DNA from: Thermodesulfobacteriota bacterium
GTDB taxonomy: Bacteria > Desulfobacterota > Binatia > Bin18
Assembly: GCA_964291405.2 (NCBI GenBank)
Contig: OZ219926.1
Span: forward strand, 2,432,001-2,496,000
Length of the DNA: 64,000 nucleotides
Direction: 5' to 3'
Shown piece by piece: positions 1,118 through 63,471 of the stretch. Each line of letters begins with the position of its first letter. Position 1 is the stretch's first letter. The notes below the pieces were generated by a model that was not told the DNA's origin, ran no database searches, and saw only the letters and a list, made by a program, of their open reading frames with translations. Both the position numbers and the translations under genes were made by a program.

Positions 1118-1133
1118 CCGTCTCTCCTCATCT

Positions 1134-1184
1134 AAAGAGGGAACGTGTCTTTCAATAGACTAAAGATGGACACGTTTCCTCTTT
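1134..1184. repeat. Palindromic element copy 1 (ureA-ureC intergenic)
   Basis: AAAGAGGGAACGTGTC-TTTCAATAGACTAAAGATG-GACACGTTTCCTCTTT; abuts the ureA stop codon. Confidence 0.95.
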
Positions 1185-1487
1185 CTAGCGAATCGGCTGG
1201 TGGACGCTGACCAGCTTGGTCCCGTCCGGAAAGGTGGCCTCGACCTGTACCAGATCAATCATCTCAGCTACTCCGTCCATCACATCGTCCCGACGGAGGA
1301 TGGTCGCGCCGTACGACATTAGTTCCGACACGGATTGACCGTCCCGAGCTCCTTCCAGCACCGCGCTGGTAATCAGGGCCATGGCTTCGGGATAGTTCAG
1401 CTTCAAGCCGCGCGCCTGCCGTTCCCGGGCCAGTTGGGCGGCAAGATAGATCATCAGCTTCTCTTGTTCGTGCGGAGTAAAATGCAT
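1185..1487 (-). CDS. ureA: Urease subunit gamma
   Basis: [11 protein letters not shown]...GLKLNYPEA...[21 protein letters not shown]. Start placed at 1487; the upstream ATG at 1520 lies inside repeat copy 2. Confidence 0.96.
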
Positions 1488-1498
1488 ACCCGTTCTCC

Positions 1499-1552
1499 GA
1501 AGAGGAAACGTGTCCAGCATCTACACGCTGTTGGAGGACCCGTTTCCTCTTT
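1499..1552. repeat. Palindromic element copy 2 (urtE-ureA intergenic)
   Basis: GAAGAGGAAACGTGTCC-AGCATCTACACGCTGTTGGA-GGACCCGTTTCCTCTTT. Confidence 0.95.
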
Positions 1553-1568
1553 GTCGTCTAGCGAGACC

Positions 1569-9135: not shown

Positions 9136-9531
9136 ATGCCGACCGAAAAAACGGCTTCCACGCTGATTCCTGGGGAAATCCTTCCAGCTGAAGGTTCAAT
9201 CGTCTTGAATGCCGGGCGACCCGTGCAGTCCGTCACCGTTCTCAATACCGGAGACCGACCGATTCAGGTAGGTTCGCATTATCACTTCTTCGAAGCCAAT
9301 CGAGCGTTGCGTTTTCCTCGGGCCACAGCCTTTGGTCTTCGGCTTGATATTCCAGCCGGTACGGCTGTTCGCTTTGAGCCTGGAGAAGAGAAAGTGATAC
9401 AACTGGTCCCGTTCGGCGGACAACGGACGGTCTTAGGCTTGAACGGTTTGACTGAGGGCAATACAGAGAATGCAACCGTTCGGCAACGGGCGCTCCAAAA
9501 GGCGTCAGAGCAGGGCTTCCTGAAAGAGTAA
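9136..9531 (+). CDS. ureB: Urease subunit beta
   Basis: [34 protein letters not shown]. Confidence 0.96.
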
Positions 9532-9577
9532 ACGTGTCCTCCGATAAACACGCAAATGCTGGACACGTTTCCTCTTT
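9523..9577. repeat. Palindromic element copy 3 (contains the ureB stop codon)
   Basis: AAAGAGTAAACGTGTCC-TCCGATAAACACGCAAATGCT-GGACACGTTTCCTCTTT. Confidence 0.95.
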
Positions 9578-9623
9578 TCCTCAGACGAAGAAACTGAGCC
9601 GGCTTAACGGTAGATGAGGCTGT

Positions 9624-12403: not shown

Positions 12404-12466
12404 TGCCTGTTCAGAGGCTTGTCTGACGGTCGGGCTATGGGGTAGTATCCCACCGTATTTTTTCGT

Positions 12467-12517
12467 AAAGAGGGAACGTGTCTTTCAATAGTCTGGAGTT
12501 GGACACGTTCCCTCTTT
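12467..12517. repeat. Palindromic element copy 4 (abuts tRNA 5' end)
   Basis: AAAGAGGGAACGTGTC-TTTCAATAGTCTGGAGTTG-GACACGTTCCCTCTTT. Confidence 0.95.
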
Positions 12518-12591
12518 GCCCCCGTAGCTCAGGAGGATAGAGCACCGGATTCCTAATCCGGGTGTCGTGCGTTCGAATCGCGCCGGGGGCA
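12518..12591 (+). tRNA. tRNA-Arg(CCU)
   Basis: GCCCCCG acceptor stem, TAGCTCAG D-arm, CCGGA-TTCCTAA-TCCGG anticodon arm, GTTCGAATC T-loop; CCA not encoded. Confidence 0.95.
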
Positions 12592-12614
12592 GTTTCCTGC
12601 TTAGTGCGAGAGAC

Positions 12615-17864: not shown

Positions 17865-19187
17865 CTATAGTCCACCAACAAAGCGACCGGGGTTCAAAAT
17901 ACCGTTGGGATCCAGGGTTTCTTTGAGTCGCTGCATAAGCGGAAACGCTTTGCCGACACTACCCCAGACATTCGCCCGTTCCTTGAGCGCCGCAGGGATC
18001 TCTTCCACAACGACAAATCCGTTGCTACCGGTTGCGTGGACACGTATCCAGTCAAAAAGGGACAAAATCTGGTCGTCGGGGACAGCCTCTCCTTCAAAAG
18101 CCGCGTACAGGATACCATTCCCGGCCCGGGCCAATAAACGGACTGGAGCATGGCGACGCTGGGATTCTGATTCCAGGTCGGCACAGAATGCCGCGAGCTG
18201 GGTTGGCTGAAGGCTGACTTTACACCGAAGCGTCGCCGGGCCGGACACAGGAAAATCCCGGAGGGCCTGAGAGAGCGTCTGCGCCTCGTCGACACTCAGC
18301 TCCTCAATATCACCTGCGTCATCCCCAAGAACATCACGCAGGTGATTCCGCTGGTCGTCGATTTCTTCCTGAATTCCAGCAAAGCCGACGAAAAGACGAT
18401 AGGCGTCTCCTCCTTGATCTCCGGAGGACGAAAGCGGAGAAAAATTGGCCAGTTCCAGGAAAAAGGGCTGCATGTCCGAGCCCGTCAATTTCAGCGCGGC
18501 TTCGCCAGCTTTTTCAGCCGAGGAGAATGTCAAGGCGAGCGTTGTTTGGGCTTCAGGTCGAGGACGGATCATAAAAGTCGCCTCGACGATAACGCCGAGC
18601 GTCCCAAACGACCCACAGTAGAGCTTTGGCAGGTCATAACCGGCCACGTTTTTCACGACTTGTCCACCACCCTTAATCAGCGTCCCATCCGCGCGCACGA
18701 CTTTTATGCCGATCAGAAAATCGCGGACCGTGCCTTGAGAGAAGCGGGCGGGACCGTTAAGATTGGCAGCAATGACTCCACCGACCGTGGCTCGCTCAGG
18801 ACACGGCGGGTCGAGCGGCAGCCATTGGCCATTTTCTCCAAGAATAGCCTGGAGTTGGGCCAGAGACATGCCGGCCCCAACGGTAATGGTCATATCGGTC
18901 GGCTGATAGTCGACAATCGCGCTCAGCCCTGTCGTACACAGCGCCTGCTCGTATCGTTTCGGTACGCCACCCAGGTGGAGAAACGCACCCTGTCCCACCG
19001 GGCTTATGGCGCAGCCGTTTTCATTTGCCTCTTTTAGCAGGCGAGAGACCTCTTCAATCGACGCGGGGTAGACTACCGTCTCGGGTGCTTGCCCGTCGAT
19101 GACGAACTGGGTGGACGGCGGATGACCTGCGGCCTGCGTCAAAGGAGTGAACGTGTCCTCCAGTGGTTTAGAAGAGATGCTGGACAC
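17865..19187 (-). CDS. glcE: Glycolate oxidase FAD-binding subunit GlcE-like
   Basis: GGQVVKNVAGYDLPKL, GSFGTLG, DPNGILNPGR; N-terminus derived from repeat copy 5. Confidence 0.85.
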   Translation of the reverse strand: MSSISSKPLEDTFTPLTQAAGHPPSTQFVIDGQAPETVVYPASIEEVSRLLKEANENGCAISPVGQGAFLHLGGVPKRYEQALCTTGLSAIVDYQPTDMTITVGAGMSLAQLQAILGENGQWLPLDPPCPERATVGGVIAANLNGPARFSQGTVRDFLIGIKVVRADGTLIKGGGQVVKNVAGYDLPKLYCGSFGTLGVIVEATFMIRPRPEAQTTLALTFSSAEKAGEAALKLTGSDMQPFFLELANFSPLSSSGDQGGDAYRLFVGFAGIQEEIDDQRNHLRDVLGDDAGDIEELSVDEAQTLSQALRDFPVSGPATLRCKVSLQPTQLAAFCADLESESQRRHAPVRLLARAGNGILYAAFEGEAVPDDQILSLFDWIRVHATGSNGFVVVEEIPAALKERANVWGSVGKAFPLMQRLKETLDPNGILNPGRFVGGL

Positions 19188-19199
19188 GTTTACTCCTTT
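19141..19199. repeat. Palindromic element copy 5 (overlaps glcE start)
   Basis: AAAGGAGTGAACGTGTCC-TCCAGTGGTTTAGAAGAGATGCT-GGACACGTTTACTCCTTT. Confidence 0.93.
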
Positions 19200-19225
19200 C
19201 GGTCTGGCTTTCTCTCTAATTCTCT

Positions 19226-22308: not shown

Positions 22309-22344
22309 TTCCGTACGCTCGTCTTGATACAGTACACCGCAGAG

Positions 22345-22397
22345 AAGAGTAAACGTGTCCAGCATCTGCGTGTGTATTGGAGGACACGTTTACTCTT
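22345..22397. repeat. Palindromic element copy 6
   Basis: AAGAGTAAACGTGTCC-AGCATCTGCGTGTGTATTGGA-GGACACGTTTACTCTT, 1 nt before ATG 22399. Confidence 0.95.
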
Positions 22398-35863: not shown

Positions 35864-35900
35864 GATGACCTCGCATACTGAAGGGCGGGGCTCACTCAGC

Positions 35901-35951
35901 AAAGAGTAAACGTGCCTAGCTTCTTTGAATTGGAGGGCACGTTTACTCTTT
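35901..35951. repeat. Palindromic element copy 7 (contains stop of the 84-aa ORF)
   Basis: AAAGAGTAAACGTGCC-TAGCTTCTTTGAATTGGAG-GGCACGTTTACTCTTT. Confidence 0.95.
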
Positions 35952-36197
35952 CTCGCCTTTCCTTCCCTTCCCCCGTATCACCAGGAGAATGAGTAGCGTG
36001 AGGGCCCATATGCCAAACAGCAGCCCACTCACGACCCAGGGGTAGAGTGGCCGGTTATTTCTTTTGGCCATGAGGCCACAGGCAATCCCGTCAAGAAAGT
36101 GAATAAAGAGCGTCGTCCCAACAAGCGCCGGAAAGGTAATGGTCTCGTCGAGGAAACGTAAGCCGGTGAAATACCCAAGAAAGACTGCGAAATCCAC
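35943..36197 (-). CDS. Small membrane protein
   Basis: Hydrophobic; W..GLLFGIWAL pattern; GGAG RBS. Confidence 0.65.
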   Translation of the reverse strand: MDFAVFLGYFTGLRFLDETITFPALVGTTLFIHFLDGIACGLMAKRNNRPLYPWVVSGLLFGIWALTLLILLVIRGKGRKGEKE

Positions 36198-36643: not shown

Positions 36644-37336
36644 ATGGCGTCGCCCATCCACACTTGGCCCGAATCTGACCGACCGCGTGAGAAACTGATC
36701 GAGCACGGGGCGGCAGCCCTCTCCAATGCAGAACTCCTTGCTATTATCCTCCGTACCGGCGATGCAAGTTCAGGACAGAGCGCGCTTGACCACGGTCGGG
36801 CGCTTGTCTCCCGTTTTGGGGACTCTTTCCGAAAACTGGAAGAGGCGAGCACGGCCGAACTGTGCGAGGTCAAAGGTATCGGGCCGGCAAAAGCCGCACA
36901 GATAAAAGCCTCATTGGAGATTGCGAAGCGCTTCTCACAAGAAGAAATTCGACGGGGCGATTCGTTTAGCTCAAGTGCTGATGTCTTCAATCACTACCGT
37001 GAACAACTCGGCAGTCTCAAAAAAGAAGAATTTCACGTGCTTCTCCTGGACGCCAAAAACCGAAAACTCAAAGACGTGCGTGTATCGGAGGGCTCTTTGA
37101 CCTCCTCCTTGGTCCACCCCCGTGAGGTTTTTCAGCCCATCATCCGCGAGTCGGCCGCGGCCGCGATCTTGGTGCATAACCACCCCAGTGGCGATCCGAT
37201 GCCGAGCCAGGAAGACCTCAAAATCACCCAGCGCCTCAGGGAGGTCGGAGAAGTGATGGGCATCCACATTCTGGACCACCTGATTATTGGCAAAGGCCGC
37301 TATATTAGTTTTGTCGATGATGGGTACTGGGATTAA
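36644..37336 (+). CDS. radC: RadC/JAB domain protein
   Basis: DRPREKL, VHPREVF, VHNHPSGDPMPS..D, LDHLIIG. Confidence 0.95.
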   Translation: MASPIHTWPESDRPREKLIEHGAAALSNAELLAIILRTGDASSGQSALDHGRALVSRFGDSFRKLEEASTAELCEVKGIGPAKAAQIKASLEIAKRFSQEEIRRGDSFSSSADVFNHYREQLGSLKKEEFHVLLLDAKNRKLKDVRVSEGSLTSSLVHPREVFQPIIRESAAAAILVHNHPSGDPMPSQEDLKITQRLREVGEVMGIHILDHLIIGKGRYISFVDDGYWD

Positions 37337-37386
37337 AGAGTAAATGTGTCCTCCAATAAACATGATGCTGGACACGTTTACTCTTT
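37335..37386. repeat. Palindromic element copy 8 (overlaps radC stop)
   Basis: AAAGAGTAAATGTGTCC-TCCAATAAACATGATGCT-GGACACGTTTACTCTTT. Confidence 0.95.
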
Positions 37387-37393
37387 AGAGGCC

Positions 37394-56809: not shown

Positions 56810-57466
56810 TTTCTTTCTGAAAAAAAGAGCATATCTGTCTCCTTCACCAAAGGGGAGTTGGTATTTATCTACGGTCTCCTGTACGAAGCCGTCATGAGGG
56901 GAGTGATCTTCTCCTGCGGTTCCGCCGCCTTTCTTGTGGGGACCTCGCATTGCTACCGCATAGCCCCCTTTTTTCACAATCGGAAGGCAGAGGGTCAGGA
57001 AGTGAGCCATATCCCAGGTCGCCCGTGTGACAACAGTATCGAACCAAGCGGGCCTCCTATCCTGTAGAGCGAACTCTTCGGCTCTCCCTTCAAACACGCG
57101 TATATTCTCTACGCCCGTCATTCTGACTACCTGTCTCAGAAAGTTTGCTCTTTTTCTTCGGGCCTCGATGAGAAAAATCTCTCTTTTCTGCCCGGCTACG
57201 CCAAGTACCAATCCTGGAAACCCGGCTCCACTCCCAAGGTCGGCAAAAACACCCTGCCCCGGAAGAATGTACGAAAAGGCAAGAGAGTCAAGAATATGCT
57301 TTCGAATAATTGTTTTTACATCAGGCTGGCCGACGAGATTGAAGACCTGAGCCCAGCGCTGAAGTTCATCTATGTACAGGGATAGAGTGTGGAACGACTG
57401 TGGAGCAAGCGATATTCGTAACGCCCTCGTGCCCTGCTCTAAGAGAGAAAGGCTCTCTTTATCCAT
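56798..57466 (-). CDS. rsmG: 16S rRNA m7G527 methyltransferase
   Basis: KHILDSL, DLGSGAGFPGL, VTRA; follows mnmG. Confidence 0.92.
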   Translation of the reverse strand: MDKESLSLLEQGTRALRISLAPQSFHTLSLYIDELQRWAQVFNLVGQPDVKTIIRKHILDSLAFSYILPGQGVFADLGSGAGFPGLVLGVAGQKREIFLIEARRKRANFLRQVVRMTGVENIRVFEGRAEEFALQDRRPAWFDTVVTRATWDMAHFLTLCLPIVKKGGYAVAMRGPHKKGGGTAGEDHSPHDGFVQETVDKYQLPFGEGDRYALFFRKKCFT

Positions 57467-59385
57467 TACACGGCGGCTCCCGTGCGTTTCAGGTGAATGG
57501 CCAGTAACGATACGGCTGCGGGCGTTACCCCGGGGATACGCGACGCTTGACCCAGCGAGCGGGGGCGCAAGGTCAGGAGTTTTTCTTTGACTTCGTTTGA
57601 GAGACCTTGGACATCCGTGTAATCAATCTCATTCGGAATAAGGGCCTCTTCCATATGCCGGACCCTGTTTACTCCCTCTTCCTGACGGCGTATGTAGCCA
57701 GAATACTTTACTTCTATCTCCACCTCGGCCCCAACTCCTGTGGAGAGGGGAGTGGGTGACAGGCTGATGGACTGGACATCTCCGAAGGACAGTTCAGGGC
57801 GGCGAAGCAATTTTGCAAGCGATGTCGGCGTTTTAATCTCTGCCGTACCTAAAGCCGATAATTGGGTATTCACTGTGTCGTTTGGGGTTAGTATAGTGTC
57901 CTCTAGACGTTGAACCTCCTGTGCAATTTCTTCTTTTTTCCTCAGCGTCCGCTCGGCCAATCTTCCATCTATGAGTCCGATTCTCCGTCCGAATTCGCTC
58001 AGCCTCACATCTGCATTGTCTTCCCTGAGTAACAGCCGATGCTCAGCACGAGAAGTAAACATCCGGTAGGGCTCTCCTCCTACTCCTTTCGTGACCAAAT
58101 CGTCTATAAGAACGCCAATATAGGCTTGATCTCGGGAAAAAATGAGGGGGTTATCACCTTGAACCTTCATTGTGGCGTTAATTCCGGCCATTATTCCTTG
58201 TGCCGCAGCCTCCTCATAGCCCGTTGTCCCGTTAATCTGACCGGCGAAGTAGAGGCCCGATACCAGCTTGGTTTCCAAAGTCTGCGTGAGTTGGGTCGGG
58301 TCGGCATAGTCATATTCAATGGCATAGCCGGGGCGCATGATCTCTGCATCCTCTAACCCTTGTATTGAACGGACCACGGCGAGCTGCACATCCAGTGGCA
58401 GACTTGTCGAAAGGCCATTTGGATAGACTTCGACTGTATCTCGCCCTTCTGGTTCGAGAAAAATCTGGTGACGAGGTTTCTCCTTAAAACGAATGACTTT
58501 ATCCTCAATCGATGGACAATAACGCGGCCCTCTGCCTTCAATCACACCGGAATACAGGGGTGAGCGGTCAAGTCCTGCGGCAATGGTCTGGTGCGTTTTC
58601 TCATTCGTATACGTCATATGACACGGCAATTGTTCCTGGGTGATTGCCTCCGTTGAAAAGGATAAGGCCGGTGGAGGGGTATCCCCGTACTGTGGCTCCA
58701 AAATGTCATAATTGATCGTTCGATTGTCCAAGCGCGGACAGGTGCCGGTTTTGAGCCGACCAATATGAAAACCAAGTTCGCTCAGATGGCTGCTTAATCC
58801 TTCAACGGCAAAGTCCCCCGCTCGTCCTGCTGCGTAATTTTTAAGGCCAACGTGTATGAGACCCTTGAGAAAGGTTCCGGTCGTCAGAATAACGGTCTGT
58901 GCTGAGAAGGACTCACCTATCTGAGTGATCACTCCTCTGACTCTGCTGTTCTGAAGAGGAAACGTGTCCAGCATATCATGTCTATTGGAGGAAACGTTTC
59001 CTCTTTCAACCCTGAGGCGTTCCACACTGCCCTGGCGCAGGGTGAGATTGGGCGTGGTTTCAACCACTCTCTTCATACGCTGCCGATAGAGGGCCTTGTC
59101 CGCTTGCGCACGCGTCGCGCGAACGGCCGGCCCTTTGCGTGTGTTCAAGACACGGAACTGAATGCCTGTCTCATCAATGGCGCGGGCCATTTCCCCACCA
59201 AGCGCATCAATCTCCCGCACCAAATGGCTTTTGCCCATCCCTCCAATAGCCGGATTGCATGACATCTGACCGATGTGATCAAGGTTCAGCGTCAGCATCA
59301 GAGTCTTACTGCCAAGACGTGCCGCCGCCAGAGCCGCCTCGATCCCGGCATGGCCAGCGCCAACAACGATAACATCATAGTCCAT
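57466..59385 (-). CDS. mnmG: tRNA modification enzyme MnmG/GidA with 18-aa repeat-derived insertion
   Basis: [41 protein letters not shown]. Confidence 0.97.
58953..59006. repeat. Palindromic element copy 9, in frame within mnmG
   Basis: GAAGAGGAAACGTGTCC-AGCATATCATGTCTATTGGA-GGAAACGTTTCCTCTTT (54 nt). Confidence 0.95.
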
Positions 59386-59395
59386 GGGTCTTCAC

Positions 59396-60847
59396 CTATT
59401 TCCCGATACAGAAATCTTGAAACACGCGGTCGAGTATCTCCTCGCTGCTGACCTGGCCCGTTATTGCGCCAATATGGTCAAGGCTTGCGCGAAGATCAAC
59501 AGCGATCAGGTCAAGGGGGAGGCCTGCCGCCAACCCCTGCTCTGCACCCTTTAGGCTTTCCACAGCTTTTTCAAGGGCAACTTTATGCCGTATTTTCGTA
59601 ATCATAACACCCCTATACGGACCTTCGCCTTCCCCTCCAGGTTGCTGCTTCCCCAGAGCGACCTCTTGTATTCTGTCTCCCAAGTCGTCAACCCCAGTCC
59701 CGTACAGCGCAGCCATGTGAAGAAGAGGAAACGTGTCAATAGCCTTGTATGATTTGGAGGGCACGCTTCCTCTTTGAGGCGCTTCAGTATCCAGACGGTC
59801 TAACAGATCGGTCACATCAAATTTCTGAGGGAGATCACTCTTATTCCCCACCAGGACAAACTTCTTTCCTTGAATCTTTTCACAGATGAGAGCGTCATCC
59901 GCATCGAACGGTCGGGAGAGGTCGAAAAGTGCTAAAATAATCTCTGCTTGTTCAATGCTGGACAGGCTGCGCTCAATGCCGATCTTCTCAATCTCATCCG
60001 TTGTCCGACGAATCCCAGCGGTGTCCCGCACGACGAGGGGAATCTCGTTCACGAGCACGGATTCCTCGAGCACATCTCGTGTCGTCCCAGGGACCTGGGT
60101 GACAATGGCTCGCTCTGTGTCTGCCAGCAGGTTGAGCAGGCTCGACTTACCGACATTCGGCTTCCCAATAATAGCGGTCACGATCCCGTCGCGATAGACT
60201 TTTCCTTGGGAGAAGGTCGCTGCGAGGGCCTCTATATCGATCCGAATTGAAGAGAAAGCTGAGCTGAGCTCCTTTTGGTTGTGTTCAGGGATATCGTCTT
60301 CAGGGAAATCGATAAACGCTTCCAGGTAGGCCGTCTGGGTAATGAGGCGGTCCCGAATGGCCGAGCACGCCTGGGAGAGTCGGCCTGATAAATCCCTCCA
60401 GGCAAGATGTAAGCCCGTCTCATTATTCGCGTGAATGAGGTCGAGTACAGCCTCAGCCTGTATGAGATCGAGGCGACCGTTGAGAAATGCACGTTTTGTA
60501 AACTCACCTGGCTGGGCGGGACGAGCCCCCTGATTGAGGATCGCTTCCAATATCCGACGAGTCAGGAAACTGCCGCCATGGAGATGTAGCTCAGCGATGT
60601 GTTCCCCAGTATAGCTGTGAGGGGAGCGCATCAGGATCAGGCCGGCGTGGTCAATTGGCTGGCCGTTCGGCTGATCCAGAATCTTGCCAAGATAGAAATG
60701 GTGGGAATGGAGTTTTTCCCAAGACGGCCGGGGGAGAAAAAGCTGTCTAACTATTCTTTCTGCGTCCGCGCCACTGACTCGGATAACGGCGATCCCGCCC
60801 TGGCCTGAGGGAGTCGCAATAGCAGCAATCGTATCATGCTCGTACAC
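59396..60847 (-). CDS. mnmE: tRNA modification GTPase MnmE with 18-aa repeat-derived insertion
   Basis: DTIAAIATP, GKPNVGKSS, GTTRD, DTAG, NKSD, FCIGK. Confidence 0.97.
   Translation of the reverse strand: MYEHDTIAAIATPSGQGGIAVIRVSGADAERIVRQLFLPRPSWEKLHSHHFYLGKILDQPNGQPIDHAGLILMRSPHSYTGEHIAELHLHGGSFLTRRILEAILNQGARPAQPGEFTKRAFLNGRLDLIQAEAVLDLIHANNETGLHLAWRDLSGRLSQACSAIRDRLITQTAYLEAFIDFPEDDIPEHNQKELSSAFSSIRIDIEALAATFSQGKVYRDGIVTAIIGKPNVGKSSLLNLLADTERAIVTQVPGTTRDVLEESVLVNEIPLVVRDTAGIRRTTDEIEKIGIERSLSSIEQAEIILALFDLSRPFDADDALICEKIQGKKFVLVGNKSDLPQKFDVTDLLDRLDTEAPQRGSVPSKSYKAIDTFPLLHMAALYGTGVDDLGDRIQEVALGKQQPGGEGEGPYRGVMITKIRHKVALEKAVESLKGAEQGLAAGLPLDLIAVDLRASLDHIGAITGQVSSEEILDRVFQDFCIGK
59722..59775. 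repeat. Palindromic element copy 10, in frame within mnmE
   Basis: GAAGAGGAAACGTGTC-AATAGCCTTGTATGATTTGGAG-GGCACGCTTCCTCTTT (54 nt). Confidence 0.93.
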
Positions 60848-60855
60848 AACTCTTC

Positions 60856-60908
60856 AAAGAGTAAACATGTCCTCCAATAGATACAAGTTGTTGACACGTT
60901 TACTCTTT
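60856..60908. repeat. Palindromic element copy 11 (jag-mnmE intergenic)
   Basis: AAAGAGTAAACATGTC-CTCCAATAGATACAAGTTGTT-GACACGTTTACTCTTT. Confidence 0.95.
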
Positions 60909-60918
60909 ATGCCACGGG

Positions 60919-61713
60919 TCACGAGCGAGCCGCCCGCCGGTCTCGATCCCGACGAGGACTGCCGGTTTCCTCAGGAACAATAGAGAGACGACGGAAATAC
61001 CCACGCCCCATGCTTTTTGTCACAACAAGCGGGTCGTCTTCGAGCACCAAATGGACGACACGACGGTCTCGAGGACTCAGCGGATTCAGGGTAACCGTTT
61101 TTCGTCGCCGCTTCGCCCGCTCGCTCAAACGAAGGGCCAAGCTTTCAAGACTCTGGCGGCGACGTTCACGATAGCCCTCGGCGTCCAAGATGATATGCGC
61201 CTCTTCCTCTTCTCCACGGGCGACCATGCGGTTGAGAAGATATTCGAGGGCATCAAGCGTTTGCCCCTTCCGTCCAATGAGTAAGCCATCGACGGTATCT
61301 TCAAGATTAATAACGGCTTCTGTCCCTTGGACGTCGAGTGAGACGGGGGCCTCTACACCCATAAGACGTAGGGTTTCTGAGAGTATCTGACGGGCATTTT
61401 CTCTTGTCTCCTTGGAAACGGGAACGGGCTGGACGACTGATTCTCCAGAAGGAGCACGACGTCGCGCTGTTCTCCCTCTCTCCTGAGGAGATTCATCAAT
61501 ACTGGCCGGAGCCGCAGATGCAGGCTCCTGAACCGAAACAGGATTTCTCAACGTCGCTCGGACGCGCGCCTTCCTCCCGCCAATACCGAGGAAACCCTTT
61601 GTAGCCTGAGCGAGGACTTCTATTTCCACCTGCTCTCTGTCTGCTTGGAGTTGGGTTAGGGCTGCTGCAACCGCCGCTTCTATAGTCGATCCTTCCGCTT
61701 CAATTGCACTCAT
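60919..61713 (-). CDS. jag: Jag/EloR (KhpB) RNA-binding protein
   Basis: Jag_N GFLGIG, KH LIGRKGQTLDALEYL, R3H RRVVH. Confidence 0.92.
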   Translation of the reverse strand: MSAIEAEGSTIEAAVAAALTQLQADREQVEIEVLAQATKGFLGIGGRKARVRATLRNPVSVQEPASAAPASIDESPQERGRTARRRAPSGESVVQPVPVSKETRENARQILSETLRLMGVEAPVSLDVQGTEAVINLEDTVDGLLIGRKGQTLDALEYLLNRMVARGEEEEAHIILDAEGYRERRRQSLESLALRLSERAKRRRKTVTLNPLSPRDRRVVHLVLEDDPLVVTKSMGRGYFRRLSIVPEETGSPRRDRDRRAARS

Positions 61714-61731
61714 TGTGTCTTTCCTCTTTGA

Positions 61732-61785
61732 AAAGAGTAAACGCGTCCTCCAATAACATGCAGATGCTGGACACGTTTACTCTTT
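61732..61785. repeat. Palindromic element copy 12 (yidC-jag intergenic, abuts yidC stop)
   Basis: AAAGAGTAAACGCGTCC-TCCAATAACATGCAGATGCT-GGACACGTTTACTCTTT. Confidence 0.95.
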
Positions 61786-63471
61786 TTATCCATATGTTCT
61801 CGTATACCAGTGCTGCTGGGCGACACTCAGGACATTATTGATAAGCCAGTACAGCACCAGTCCGGCTGGAAAATTAATGAACATCACCGTAAAGATGACC
61901 GGCATGAGGAGCATCATCTTCTGCTGGATCGGATCTCCGGTGGTTGGCATCATCATCTGCTGGATGATCATCGACCCCCCCATAAGTAAGGTCAGCACCG
62001 GGATACCTGGAGGATCAACGAAAGGAATGGCAAGCGCGCCCAAGCGGTCTGGCTGAGACAGGTCTTCAATCCAGCCGAAAAATGGAGCTTGTCTCAATTC
62101 AATGGCGTACAAAAGCCCCTGATACAGGCCGATGAACACCGGGAGCTGTACAATCATGGGGAGACACCCACCGAGCGGATTCACTTCGTACCGCTTATAC
62201 AGTTCCATCATTTCCTGGTTCAGCTTTTGTCGGTCCTCCTTATATTGCTCACGGAGTCTTTCTATCTGCGGCTGGAGTTTCTTCATCGCTGACATGGACT
62301 TGAAGCTCTTATTACTGAGCGGGAAGAATACCAGTTTAACCAGGACAGTGAGTAAGATAATAGCAATGCCGTAGTTCCCGGTCACCCCATACAGGAGTCT
62401 CAGAAGAGAGACTAACGGCCGGGCAATAAAGTGGGACCAGCCAAAATCGATGGCCCGGTCAAAGGCCGGGTCAACCGCATTCAGGGCATCCGTATCCTTC
62501 GGACCAACATACAGGGTGTAGGAGACCGCCTCCCCGCTCCAGGGAGTCGAGAGGCGTGTTTCTAGGGTCTTGTCTTCATCACGAAAGAAGAGCTGGGCCG
62601 TTTCAATATCTCGAGGCATTATGCCGGCCAAGAAATAACTGTTTGTGAATCCTGCCCAACGAACATCCCCCGGCCCGTATGAGTCTCCGGCTTCCCAATC
62701 CCAGGCGTTTTCATATTCAAAGGTCCGGCCCATCAGCGCAACCGGCCCGTAGACGTCATAATAGGTAGATTTCCCTTCTGAACGTGAGCCTTCGAGCCAG
62801 GATATAGAGAGGGTCGAAGCCTGAAAAGGAACCTGCGTGACATCGACGCTGAGACCTATGCCATACCCTTCGCCGGAAAAAGTAAAGGTTTTGGTAAAAG
62901 TTGCCCCATTCGCCAGCGACCCTCTAAACACGAGATCCTTATCAGATCCCGCCGGCACAAAGAGCCGTTCTCCTGCGGGGACCCCCTTCACGGTATACGG
63001 CAGTGTATCATCACTGAGAGTGATATCTTTGCCGCTCAGGCTCAGGACGAAGGGCAGCTCTCCATAGGTCCCGGCGATGACCATTTCCAATAGCGGACTG
63101 TCTGGACTAAGCGTCACCGGATACTGTTTGAGGCGGAAGCTTTTGATACGTCCGCCCACGGAAGTAAAAACAGCAATATACGTGTCTGTTTCAACTGTTA
63201 TGTCCTGTTCCACGGGAGCGGGGGAAACTCTTGAGGTGGGCTGGGGCATACCGGAAGTCTGTTCTTCTTGTTGTTCAACATCGGTCCGGCGGCGCTCCGA
63301 AAGGAGTTGGGGCTGTTGATCTGAAGGAGTGGCTGATTCCGAGTCGACCAATGGCTGTTGAGTCTGGGGCTGGAGAGGGTCAGGCGGTGGGTAAAGATAG
63401 GAGATCAGTGACTGATACCCGATAAGAATGAGGATACAGAGGACAATAGCGAGGAGACTCTTGTTATCCAT
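61786..63471 (-). CDS. yidC: Membrane protein insertase YidC
   Basis: NYGIAIILLT, NPLGGCLP, FPAGLVLYW. Confidence 0.96.
   Translation of the reverse strand: MDNKSLLAIVLCILILIGYQSLISYLYPPPDPLQPQTQQPLVDSESATPSDQQPQLLSERRRTDVEQQEEQTSGMPQPTSRVSPAPVEQDITVETDTYIAVFTSVGGRIKSFRLKQYPVTLSPDSPLLEMVIAGTYGELPFVLSLSGKDITLSDDTLPYTVKGVPAGERLFVPAGSDKDLVFRGSLANGATFTKTFTFSGEGYGIGLSVDVTQVPFQASTLSISWLEGSRSEGKSTYYDVYGPVALMGRTFEYENAWDWEAGDSYGPGDVRWAGFTNSYFLAGIMPRDIETAQLFFRDEDKTLETRLSTPWSGEAVSYTLYVGPKDTDALNAVDPAFDRAIDFGWSHFIARPLVSLLRLLYGVTGNYGIAIILLTVLVKLVFFPLSNKSFKSMSAMKKLQPQIERLREQYKEDRQKLNQEMMELYKRYEVNPLGGCLPMIVQLPVFIGLYQGLLYAIELRQAPFFGWIEDLSQPDRLGALAIPFVDPPGIPVLTLLMGGSMIIQQMMMPTTGDPIQQKMMLLMPVIFTVMFINFPAGLVLYWLINNVLSVAQQHWYTRTYG

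Follow-up and report, generated by a model that had tools for sequence, protein, structure and literature searches.

We looked at a 54-nt palindromic element that lies in frame inside mnmG (gidA), on a 64,000-nt stretch of DNA, called here the window, from a genome of Candidatus (Ca.) Binatia (assembly GCA_964291405.2, contig OZ219926.1, positions 2,432,001 to 2,496,000). These 54 nt are, very probably, a copy of a dispersed palindromic repeat restricted to one genus of Ca. Binatia, which would have inserted recently and would be read through as a tolerated 18-residue loop. According to this account, the element behaves as selfish DNA, mobile or formerly mobile, and one copy would have entered mnmG by transposition in a recent ancestor of this genome and its sister. 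As its length is divisible by three and its landing frame is free of stop codons, ordinary translation would read through the element and add 18 residues to the protein. The loop would stand at the tip of a beta-hairpin of the FAD domain, off the published MnmE-MnmG contacts, where the enzyme would tolerate it, and the insertion would persist as neutral or slightly harmful baggage. The same process would have affected mnmE and no fewer than seven further housekeeping genes.

The host gene occupies 57466..59385 on the minus strand and encodes an intact 639-aa open reading frame (ORF). A Pfam scan of this ORF returned PF01134 (GIDA, E 1.3e-169) plus the C-terminal domains PF21680 and PF13932, that is, the FAD domain and the two C-terminal helical domains of MnmG/GidA, full length and stop-free. 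E. coli MnmG matched the product over residues 3-636 (phmmer, E 1e-219). The element itself lies at 58953..59006 on the minus strand, corresponding to residues 128-145 of the protein, and is a palindrome with perfect 12-nt outer arms (AAGAGGAAACGT and ACGTTTCCTCTT), an arm pattern that occurs a single time in the window and in none of 100 shuffles. When exactly 58953-59006 was removed in silico, a single open frame was left, reading RLRVENSRVRGV, and the phmmer alignment to E. coli MnmG (PDB 3cp2, 9hip) showed one 18-residue gap exactly at the insert, between ...VEDLIV and ENDRVVGAV.... The preliminary description of this DNA, made from the letters of the window, had proposed an in-frame insertion of 54 nt, or 18 residues, in an otherwise intact mnmG, and it proved correct to the base; its focus on MnmG was too narrow, this insertion being one of at least ten, another of which lies about 700 nt away in mnmE. 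Between this genome (G000) and its closest relative (G004, 98% identical), both of which carry the insert, 94 of the 1917 nt of mnmG and 14 residues differ, giving a nonsynonymous rate (dN) of 0.0097, a synonymous rate (dS) of 0.192 and a dN/dS of 0.051. A dN/dS of 0.05 argues that mnmG stayed under strong purifying selection after the insertion and, as far as the sequence tells, the host gene is still functional.

The element belongs to a large family, as the preliminary description had supposed when it called the insert a copy of a dispersed palindromic DNA repeat. Its 10-mer core, with at most one mismatch, has 29 occurrences in the window where 4.7 +/- 2.1 are expected, and none of 100 shuffles reached 29. 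A strict regular expression gave 61 copies in the 4.95-Mb Ca. Binatia genome, and a profile built from these 61 copies gave 294 strand hits that reduce to 157 loci, since palindromes match both strands. All of them are on the large contig, 12 of the 157 in the window (nhmmer). The family consensus reads AAAGAG(T/G)AAACGTGTCC, followed by a loop of roughly 14 nt and by GGACACGTTT(A/C)CTCTTT; its terminal inverted arms are about 17-20 nt long, compared with the perfect 12 nt of the mnmG copy. The modal length is 54 nt, found in 65 of 144 delimited copies, and the length of 78 of the 144 is divisible by three. On average 3.6 of the six frames of a copy are stop-free against 2.0 in shuffles, an excess given as a description and not as a test because all copies share ancestry. 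An Rfam scan of 58800-59900 at E values up to 1 returned only a chance match to a long non-coding RNA (16 bits), so the element corresponds to no RNA family in Rfam. The 300 kb round mnmG-mnmE (2.2-2.5 Mb of contig C3), some 6% of the genome, hold 42 of the 157 loci. Clustering of the copies at the replication origin was considered as well and is not claimed, as the cumulative GC skew has a trough between 1.8 and 3.0 Mb that is too flat for the origin to be located.

Outside this genome, the strict two-arm pattern was present in 13 of 31 genomes, namely G000 and 12 of its 18 congeners, and in none of the 12 genomes from other genera of the class; a reversed-pattern control gave zero in all 31. 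The congeners without strict copies are those whose MnmG is at most 82% identical. In a scan of one genome per prokaryote species, at least 122 stretches matched the search pattern, and 54 of the 80 with listed titles are Ca. Binatia. The family profile scored 93 of these at least 122 stretches, with a median of 56 bits. Among the titled matches listed, all strong profile scores are Ca. Binatia, and the six scoring records from elsewhere reach 15-18 bits, which is the contribution of the search pattern itself. The family thus appears, by sequence searches, to be restricted to one genus of Ca. Binatia.

MnmG was found in all 31 genomes. Twenty mnmG loci were fetched, one of which ends before the site, leaving 19 informative loci. 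The insert is carried by two of them, G000 and G004. At 15 loci the site is empty and the DNA gap relative to G000 is exactly 54 nt; like the E. coli, Aquifex and Chlorobaculum structures, these loci are without the 18-residue loop, which answers the question about distant orthologues raised in the preliminary description. A third relative, G010, reads RGNV at the site with one extra residue: 12 nt of one arm are left, and the deletion beyond this remnant also took 9-10 nt of flank, which leaves the locus 3 nt longer on balance. Because of this remnant, the ancestor shared by G000, G004 and G010 probably already had the copy, most of which was later deleted in G010. The mnmG copy is a recent insertion. 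The last informative locus, G013 (L012), has an unrelated 8-residue insert, RAGLEPGR, in the same loop, and so does a metagenomic protein, P0026. The G013 insert stands at the same hairpin tip, so the loop tolerates a change of length. The tip of this hairpin looks like a natural hot spot for length change, as the G013 and P0026 inserts illustrate.

Metagenomic proteins extend this picture. A search with residues 95-180 gave 2490 matches, and the top 21 MnmG clusters fit the insert-bearing segment at 91-100% identity with full coverage. Seventeen matches were aligned: 12 have the insert, two a remnant of the G010 type, two are empty and one has the G013-type insert. Among the inserts, the residues of the loop drift and even invert, and the frame stays open. 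Two proteins, P0020 and P0021, carry a different 18-residue peptide at the same site, and reverse-complementing only the centre of the G000 element, between arms of 14-17 nt, gives this peptide exactly. By nearby substitutions, each of the flipped-loop alleles groups with a different unflipped allele. This suggests that the loop may have inverted in place, twice. The search also returned ten MnmG clusters of equal length (657 aa; P0001-P0010), five of which were aligned (P0001, P0002, P0006, P0008 and P0010); these five have a second element copy in the C-terminal helical domain. In three of the aligned 657-aa proteins the C-terminus is ...KR(K/R)RVLQ; this resembles yet another copy, the third, in a different reading frame and placed at the stop codon.

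To place the loop in the protein, we used an AlphaFold2 model made from a 58-sequence alignment (mean predicted local distance difference test score, pLDDT, 70.8; predicted template modelling score, pTM, 0.63), which matches 9hip_C with an E value of 2.9e-56. In this model, strands 121-127 and 147-154 lie on either side of the insert, which is mostly coil, with residues 132-141 below a pLDDT of 50. The insert is thus modelled at the tip of a beta-hairpin of the FAD domain, in agreement with the surface beta-turn expected in the preliminary description. In E. coli numbering, for which the 20-residue offset of chain 3cp2 was set by matching C47 of PMC12397908, the insertion falls between V130 and E131, in the 100-160 segment of the FAD-binding domain. 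The contact residues between MnmE and MnmG given in the available text of PMC12397908 are 53-55, 82-92, 273-296, 427-437, 516-517, 547-567 and 608-622, and the V130/E131 site is outside all of these.

The gene of the partner enzyme, mnmE (trmE; 59396..60847, minus strand), carries a second in-frame copy. This gene encodes an intact protein of 483 aa with TrmE_N, MMR_HSR1 and MnmE_helical domains and a dN/dS of 0.16-0.20. Its copy, at 59721..59776 on the minus strand, encodes ...QRGSVPSKSYKAIDTFPLL... with a net gain of 48 nt (16 aa); it is read in the same element frame as the mnmG copy, and its arms are more decayed. The NKxD motif stands on one side of it and the final G-domain strand on the other, and a gap is seen there against Nostoc MnmE (3geh). 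The copy is present at three of 18 loci (G000, G004 and G010), the other 15 that reach the site being without it.

In the whole genome, an open frame of 90 codons or more runs across 77 loci. The best 40 were scanned against Pfam, of which 18 ORFs gave no hit and are not counted as intragenic, and selected sites were compared with G004, G010, G002, G005 and G012. All ten in-frame sites tested, mnmG and mnmE included, are lineage-specific insertions of 48-57 nt relative to the empty allele, exactly 54 nt at eight of them (the HEAT-repeat site being counted by an 18-residue gap in G012), and they are spread over nine conserved genes. Two sites are in a MiaB-like methylthiotransferase. At the first, G000 and G005 have the insert and G004 and G002 are empty, while G010 keeps an AAATTT footprint from which the 48-nt core is gone; at the second, the insert is in G000, G004 and G005, absent from G002, and shortened by 21 nt inside the element in G010. 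In alaS (AlaRS), G000 and G002 are filled and the other four genomes empty. The mfd (Mfd) insert is in G000 only, with G004, G010, G002 and G012 empty and unrelated sequence there in G005. For pgeF (PgeF, Cu-oxidase_4), the insert is in G000, G004 and G010, and G002 and G005 are empty. A UvrA-like protein of 1931 aa has it in G000 and G005, with the other four empty; an FAD_binding_3 oxidoreductase has it in G000, G004 and G010, with G002 empty; and a HEAT-repeat protein has it in G000 and four relatives, with G012 empty. Taken over these sites, the element is read in three frames (RGNVSS..DTFPL, KSKRVLQS..AGHVYSF and KEET..PSF) and in both loop orientations. The decayed copies of G010 all keep the frame: +3 nt for the mnmG remnant, +6 nt for AAATTT and -21 nt at the second MiaB-like site (loci L186 and L003). 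The pgeF region of G005 (L201), which is without the G000-type insert, shows two different family copies that lie within the 5' part of the gene or immediately ahead of it, and one in-frame TAG was flagged in this region. Outside the ten counted sites, Pfam-supported candidates are an APH kinase, an AddB-like nuclease, an OEP protein, a YceD tail and a histidine kinase. Several others (a Mur ligase, an acyl-CoA dehydrogenase, a histidine phosphatase and a FAS1-like dehydratase) were rejected as intragenic because the element precedes the first domain and probably the true start as well. A search for genes split by the element, through copies between two long frames on the same strand, gave 67 rows, most of them ordinary neighbouring genes.

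The presence of a copy in both partners of one enzyme complex, with two further copies flanking the operon, raises the question of whether the insert has been co-opted, either as an mRNA hairpin that tunes the expression or stability of mnmE-mnmG or as a surface loop that alters the MnmEG complex. The insert is also kept across the 21 metagenomic clusters while local identity falls to 91%, and one lineage gained its second mnmG copy in the helical domain. Moreover, none of the 94 differences between G000 and G004 falls within the 54 nt, where about 2.6 would be expected; this deficit, however, is not significant. The company of copies round the operon may be no more than local density, since the region is simply rich in them, and the same element is found in unrelated genes and in different frames. 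G010 lost most of its mnmG copy and the gene is intact. Finally, the site is not among the interface residues given in the available text of PMC12397908. Taken together, we consider co-option improbable.

Independent sequencing supports the insert. A 3098-nt contig of run X4 covers 58600-59900 with six differences and no gap, confirming both the mnmG and the mnmE copy, and a 402-nt contig of run X3 bridges the mnmG copy (58868-59269), so that the read check proposed in the preliminary description came out in favour of the insertion. Since such independent metagenome contigs span the insert, it is no assembly error. Many contigs of other public runs stack on 58954-59006 and diverge at both borders, as a dispersed repeat would, and this loose-ended stack therefore delimits the repeat unit independently. 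Public runs in which this stretch is found bear the labels of sponge, coral or plain metagenomes.

A more drastic alternative is that the hairpin is in the gene yet absent from the protein, through ribosome bypassing or excision from the mRNA. Programmed bypassing is known from T4 gene 60 and from the 'byp' inserts of Magnusiomyces mitochondria. The RNA of the insert would indeed fold strongly (-24.8 kcal/mol for 81 nt round it, z -2.6, with 2 of 200 shuffles as stable), and the insert peptide is itself deduced from sequence. But the frame is open, so bypassing is unnecessary. At each of the ten sites tested, the frame is preserved and, as used, contains no stop, which would be needless if the element were bypassed, though the search favoured such cases; likewise, the partial deletions of G010 change the length by +3, +6 and -21 nt, and the drifting or inverted loops leave the frame open. 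No joint skipping the mnmG element was seen in any run compared. The RNA runs X16 and X17 bridge no element: X16 is without 58776-59326 and the mnmE copy, and X17 is without the mnmE copy. We therefore regard bypassing or excision as very unlikely, even more so than co-option. As for an artefact of assembly or binning that misplaced a repeat into mnmG, repeats do break short-read assemblies and several contigs end at element borders, but contigs of two other studies bridge the insert without gaps, it occupies the same position in the sister genome G004 and 12 aligned metagenomic proteins from separate contigs have it too, so that the probability of such an artefact is negligible.

Several points nevertheless weigh against the account of a recently inserted, translated and tolerated repeat. 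The intragenic copies were found by demanding an open frame across the element, and gene-breaking copies would be missed; as a length of 3n free of stops is partly built into the search, the finding that all intragenic copies are 3n is not used as a test. We infer the translation of the mnmG insert from its sequence, and its neutrality is assumed, as a small cost or benefit would look the same. The structure model, with its mean pLDDT of 70.8, is only moderate. The only RNA-library contig that reaches the mnmG element, from run X17, is 93% identical and stops at 59002 inside it, and may be DNA carry-over. A search of this genome for a longer parent element, through arm pairs 70-6000 nt apart and solo arms, gave only neighbouring copies and decayed partners. 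No transposase linked to the family was found in this genome, where the sole Y1_Tnp homologue (PF01797, C3:982103-982333), sought as a sign of a REP-associated tyrosine transposase (RAYT), is not flanked by the element and has its nearest copies 15-19 kb away.

The alleles themselves give some indication of how the element comes and goes. Presence at the sites is patchy among close relatives and fits no single tree, which calls for loss, recombination with empty alleles or repeated gain, and the footprints of G010 mean that loss does happen. No target duplication was found at the seven junctions read base by base (mnmG, mnmE, both MiaB-like sites, alaS, mfd and pgeF); the alaS junction can slide by 1-3 nt. 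As a conjecture, the hairpin shape, the lack of duplication and clean loss would fit a single-strand mechanism of the HUH type. More speculatively, the family could be a still-active 54-nt mobile hairpin adapted to life in ORFs, which would leave precisely or with a small in-frame footprint, whose loop could flip, and which would be moved by an enzyme yet to be named, maybe one acting on single-stranded hairpins. We hold this idea to be possible and rather doubtful. If true, the element would be a natural source of new surface loops in housekeeping proteins, and a single loop flip would exchange six residues of an essential enzyme at once.

The ten remaining copies of the window, all palindromic and given here without strand, lie outside the tested sites. 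Two are intergenic, one just upstream of the mnmE start (60855..60909, nhmmer 48.1 bits) and one just upstream of a 264-aa ORF at 60919..61713 (61730..61786). The profile places the others at 1133..1185, 1499..1553, 9522..9578, 12466..12518, 19141..19200, 22343..22397, 35900..35952 and 37334..37387. The copy at 9522..9578 is in a 188-aa open frame and is only putatively coding because this frame has no Pfam hit. The one at 12466..12518 abuts the 5' end of a tRNA-Arg gene (12517-12592) with a 2-nt overlap; it is one of four copies that end within about 20 nt upstream of tRNA genes (Arg, Ser, Asn and Val), the others being at C3:2343069, 2346267 and 3280090. At 19 loci of C3 (e.g. 1010394, 2160930 and 3348267), an upstream frame of at least 150 codons enters the element by two codons and stops at its TAA (...K-E-stop), so about 19 genes appear, from these frames, to take their final residues and their stop codon from the repeat. 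A collapsed copy at C3:2812972 has its two arms joined without a centre (AAGAGTAAACGT directly followed by TTACTCTT).

We then compared the family with known systems. Bacterial MITEs (miniature transposable elements with inverted repeats) such as Correia/NEMIS (107 bp) and ERIC are described in the available text of PMC2229807 as about 100-200 bp long, most with target-site duplications, often TA. Like the Binatia element, they are small and non-autonomous, have inverted termini and hairpin transcripts and sometimes make in-frame ORF fusions. The Binatia element has the terminal inverted repeats expected of a MITE; unlike MITEs, it shows no target-site duplication at the seven junctions read and no parent insertion sequence with the same arms in this genome, the only one in which a parent was sought. 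Repetitive extragenic palindromes (REP/REPIN) are short hairpin palindromes that lie mainly outside genes, number tens to hundreds of copies, show no target duplication and flank a RAYT gene. The hairpin shape and the missing duplication are shared with the Binatia element, whereas its Y1_Tnp homologue is not flanked by copies and, to our knowledge, in-frame insertion in genes is no feature of REP. The mitochondrial palindromes of Nematomorpha also consist of inverted repeats in coding sequence with both arms translated, but they reach 284 bp, are mitochondrial and are not described as a dispersed mobile family in the available text of PMC6649704.

The closest parallel is with the Rickettsia palindromic elements (RPEs; Ogata et al. 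2000 and 2002), which the preliminary description had invoked. In the available text of PMC2229807 and PMC10969869, RPEs are 105-146 bp long with terminal repeats of about 12 bp and are in frame in at least 19 protein genes; one host protein, Gmk, is translated and active, and RPEs are also found in transfer-messenger RNA (tmRNA) and RNase P RNA. They are confined to Rickettsia (PMC2229807). Like the RPEs described there, the Binatia elements are dispersed palindromes with terminal inverted arms, intergenic as well as in frame in conserved housekeeping genes, with lineage-specific presence or absence and intact host genes. The differences are a length of 105-146 bp against 54 nt, and Rickettsia against one genus of Ca. 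Binatia in another phylum. Moreover, each RPE family gives one conserved peptide, whereas the Binatia element is read in three frames and both loop orientations, and RPEs occur in tmRNA and RNase P RNA, whereas neither of these RNAs holds a copy in this genome. The comparison is therefore apt as an analogy and does not extend to membership: the Binatia family may be called RPE-like without being an RPE, set apart by how RPEs are described and not by sequence comparison.

Until now, protein-coding palindromes inserted in frame at high frequency were essentially a speciality of Rickettsia, and the available text of a 2024 review of MITEs treats the same in other prokaryotes as merely conceivable (PMC10969869). 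A literature search, covering one library of papers without supplements, gave no paper on such repeats in Binatia or Binatota. The present family offers a clear second case, in an uncultured lineage of Ca. Binatia. It also has a practical side, as its inserts make proteins longer, cause short-read assemblies to break at the element borders and could pass for lineage-specific functional loops. With filled, empty, footprint and flipped-loop states at the same positions in relatives, it amounts to a natural experiment on how essential enzymes tolerate loops of 18 residues and on how such elements come and go. Altogether, the kind of element is already known from the RPEs, as a protein-coding palindrome, and this family of it is new.

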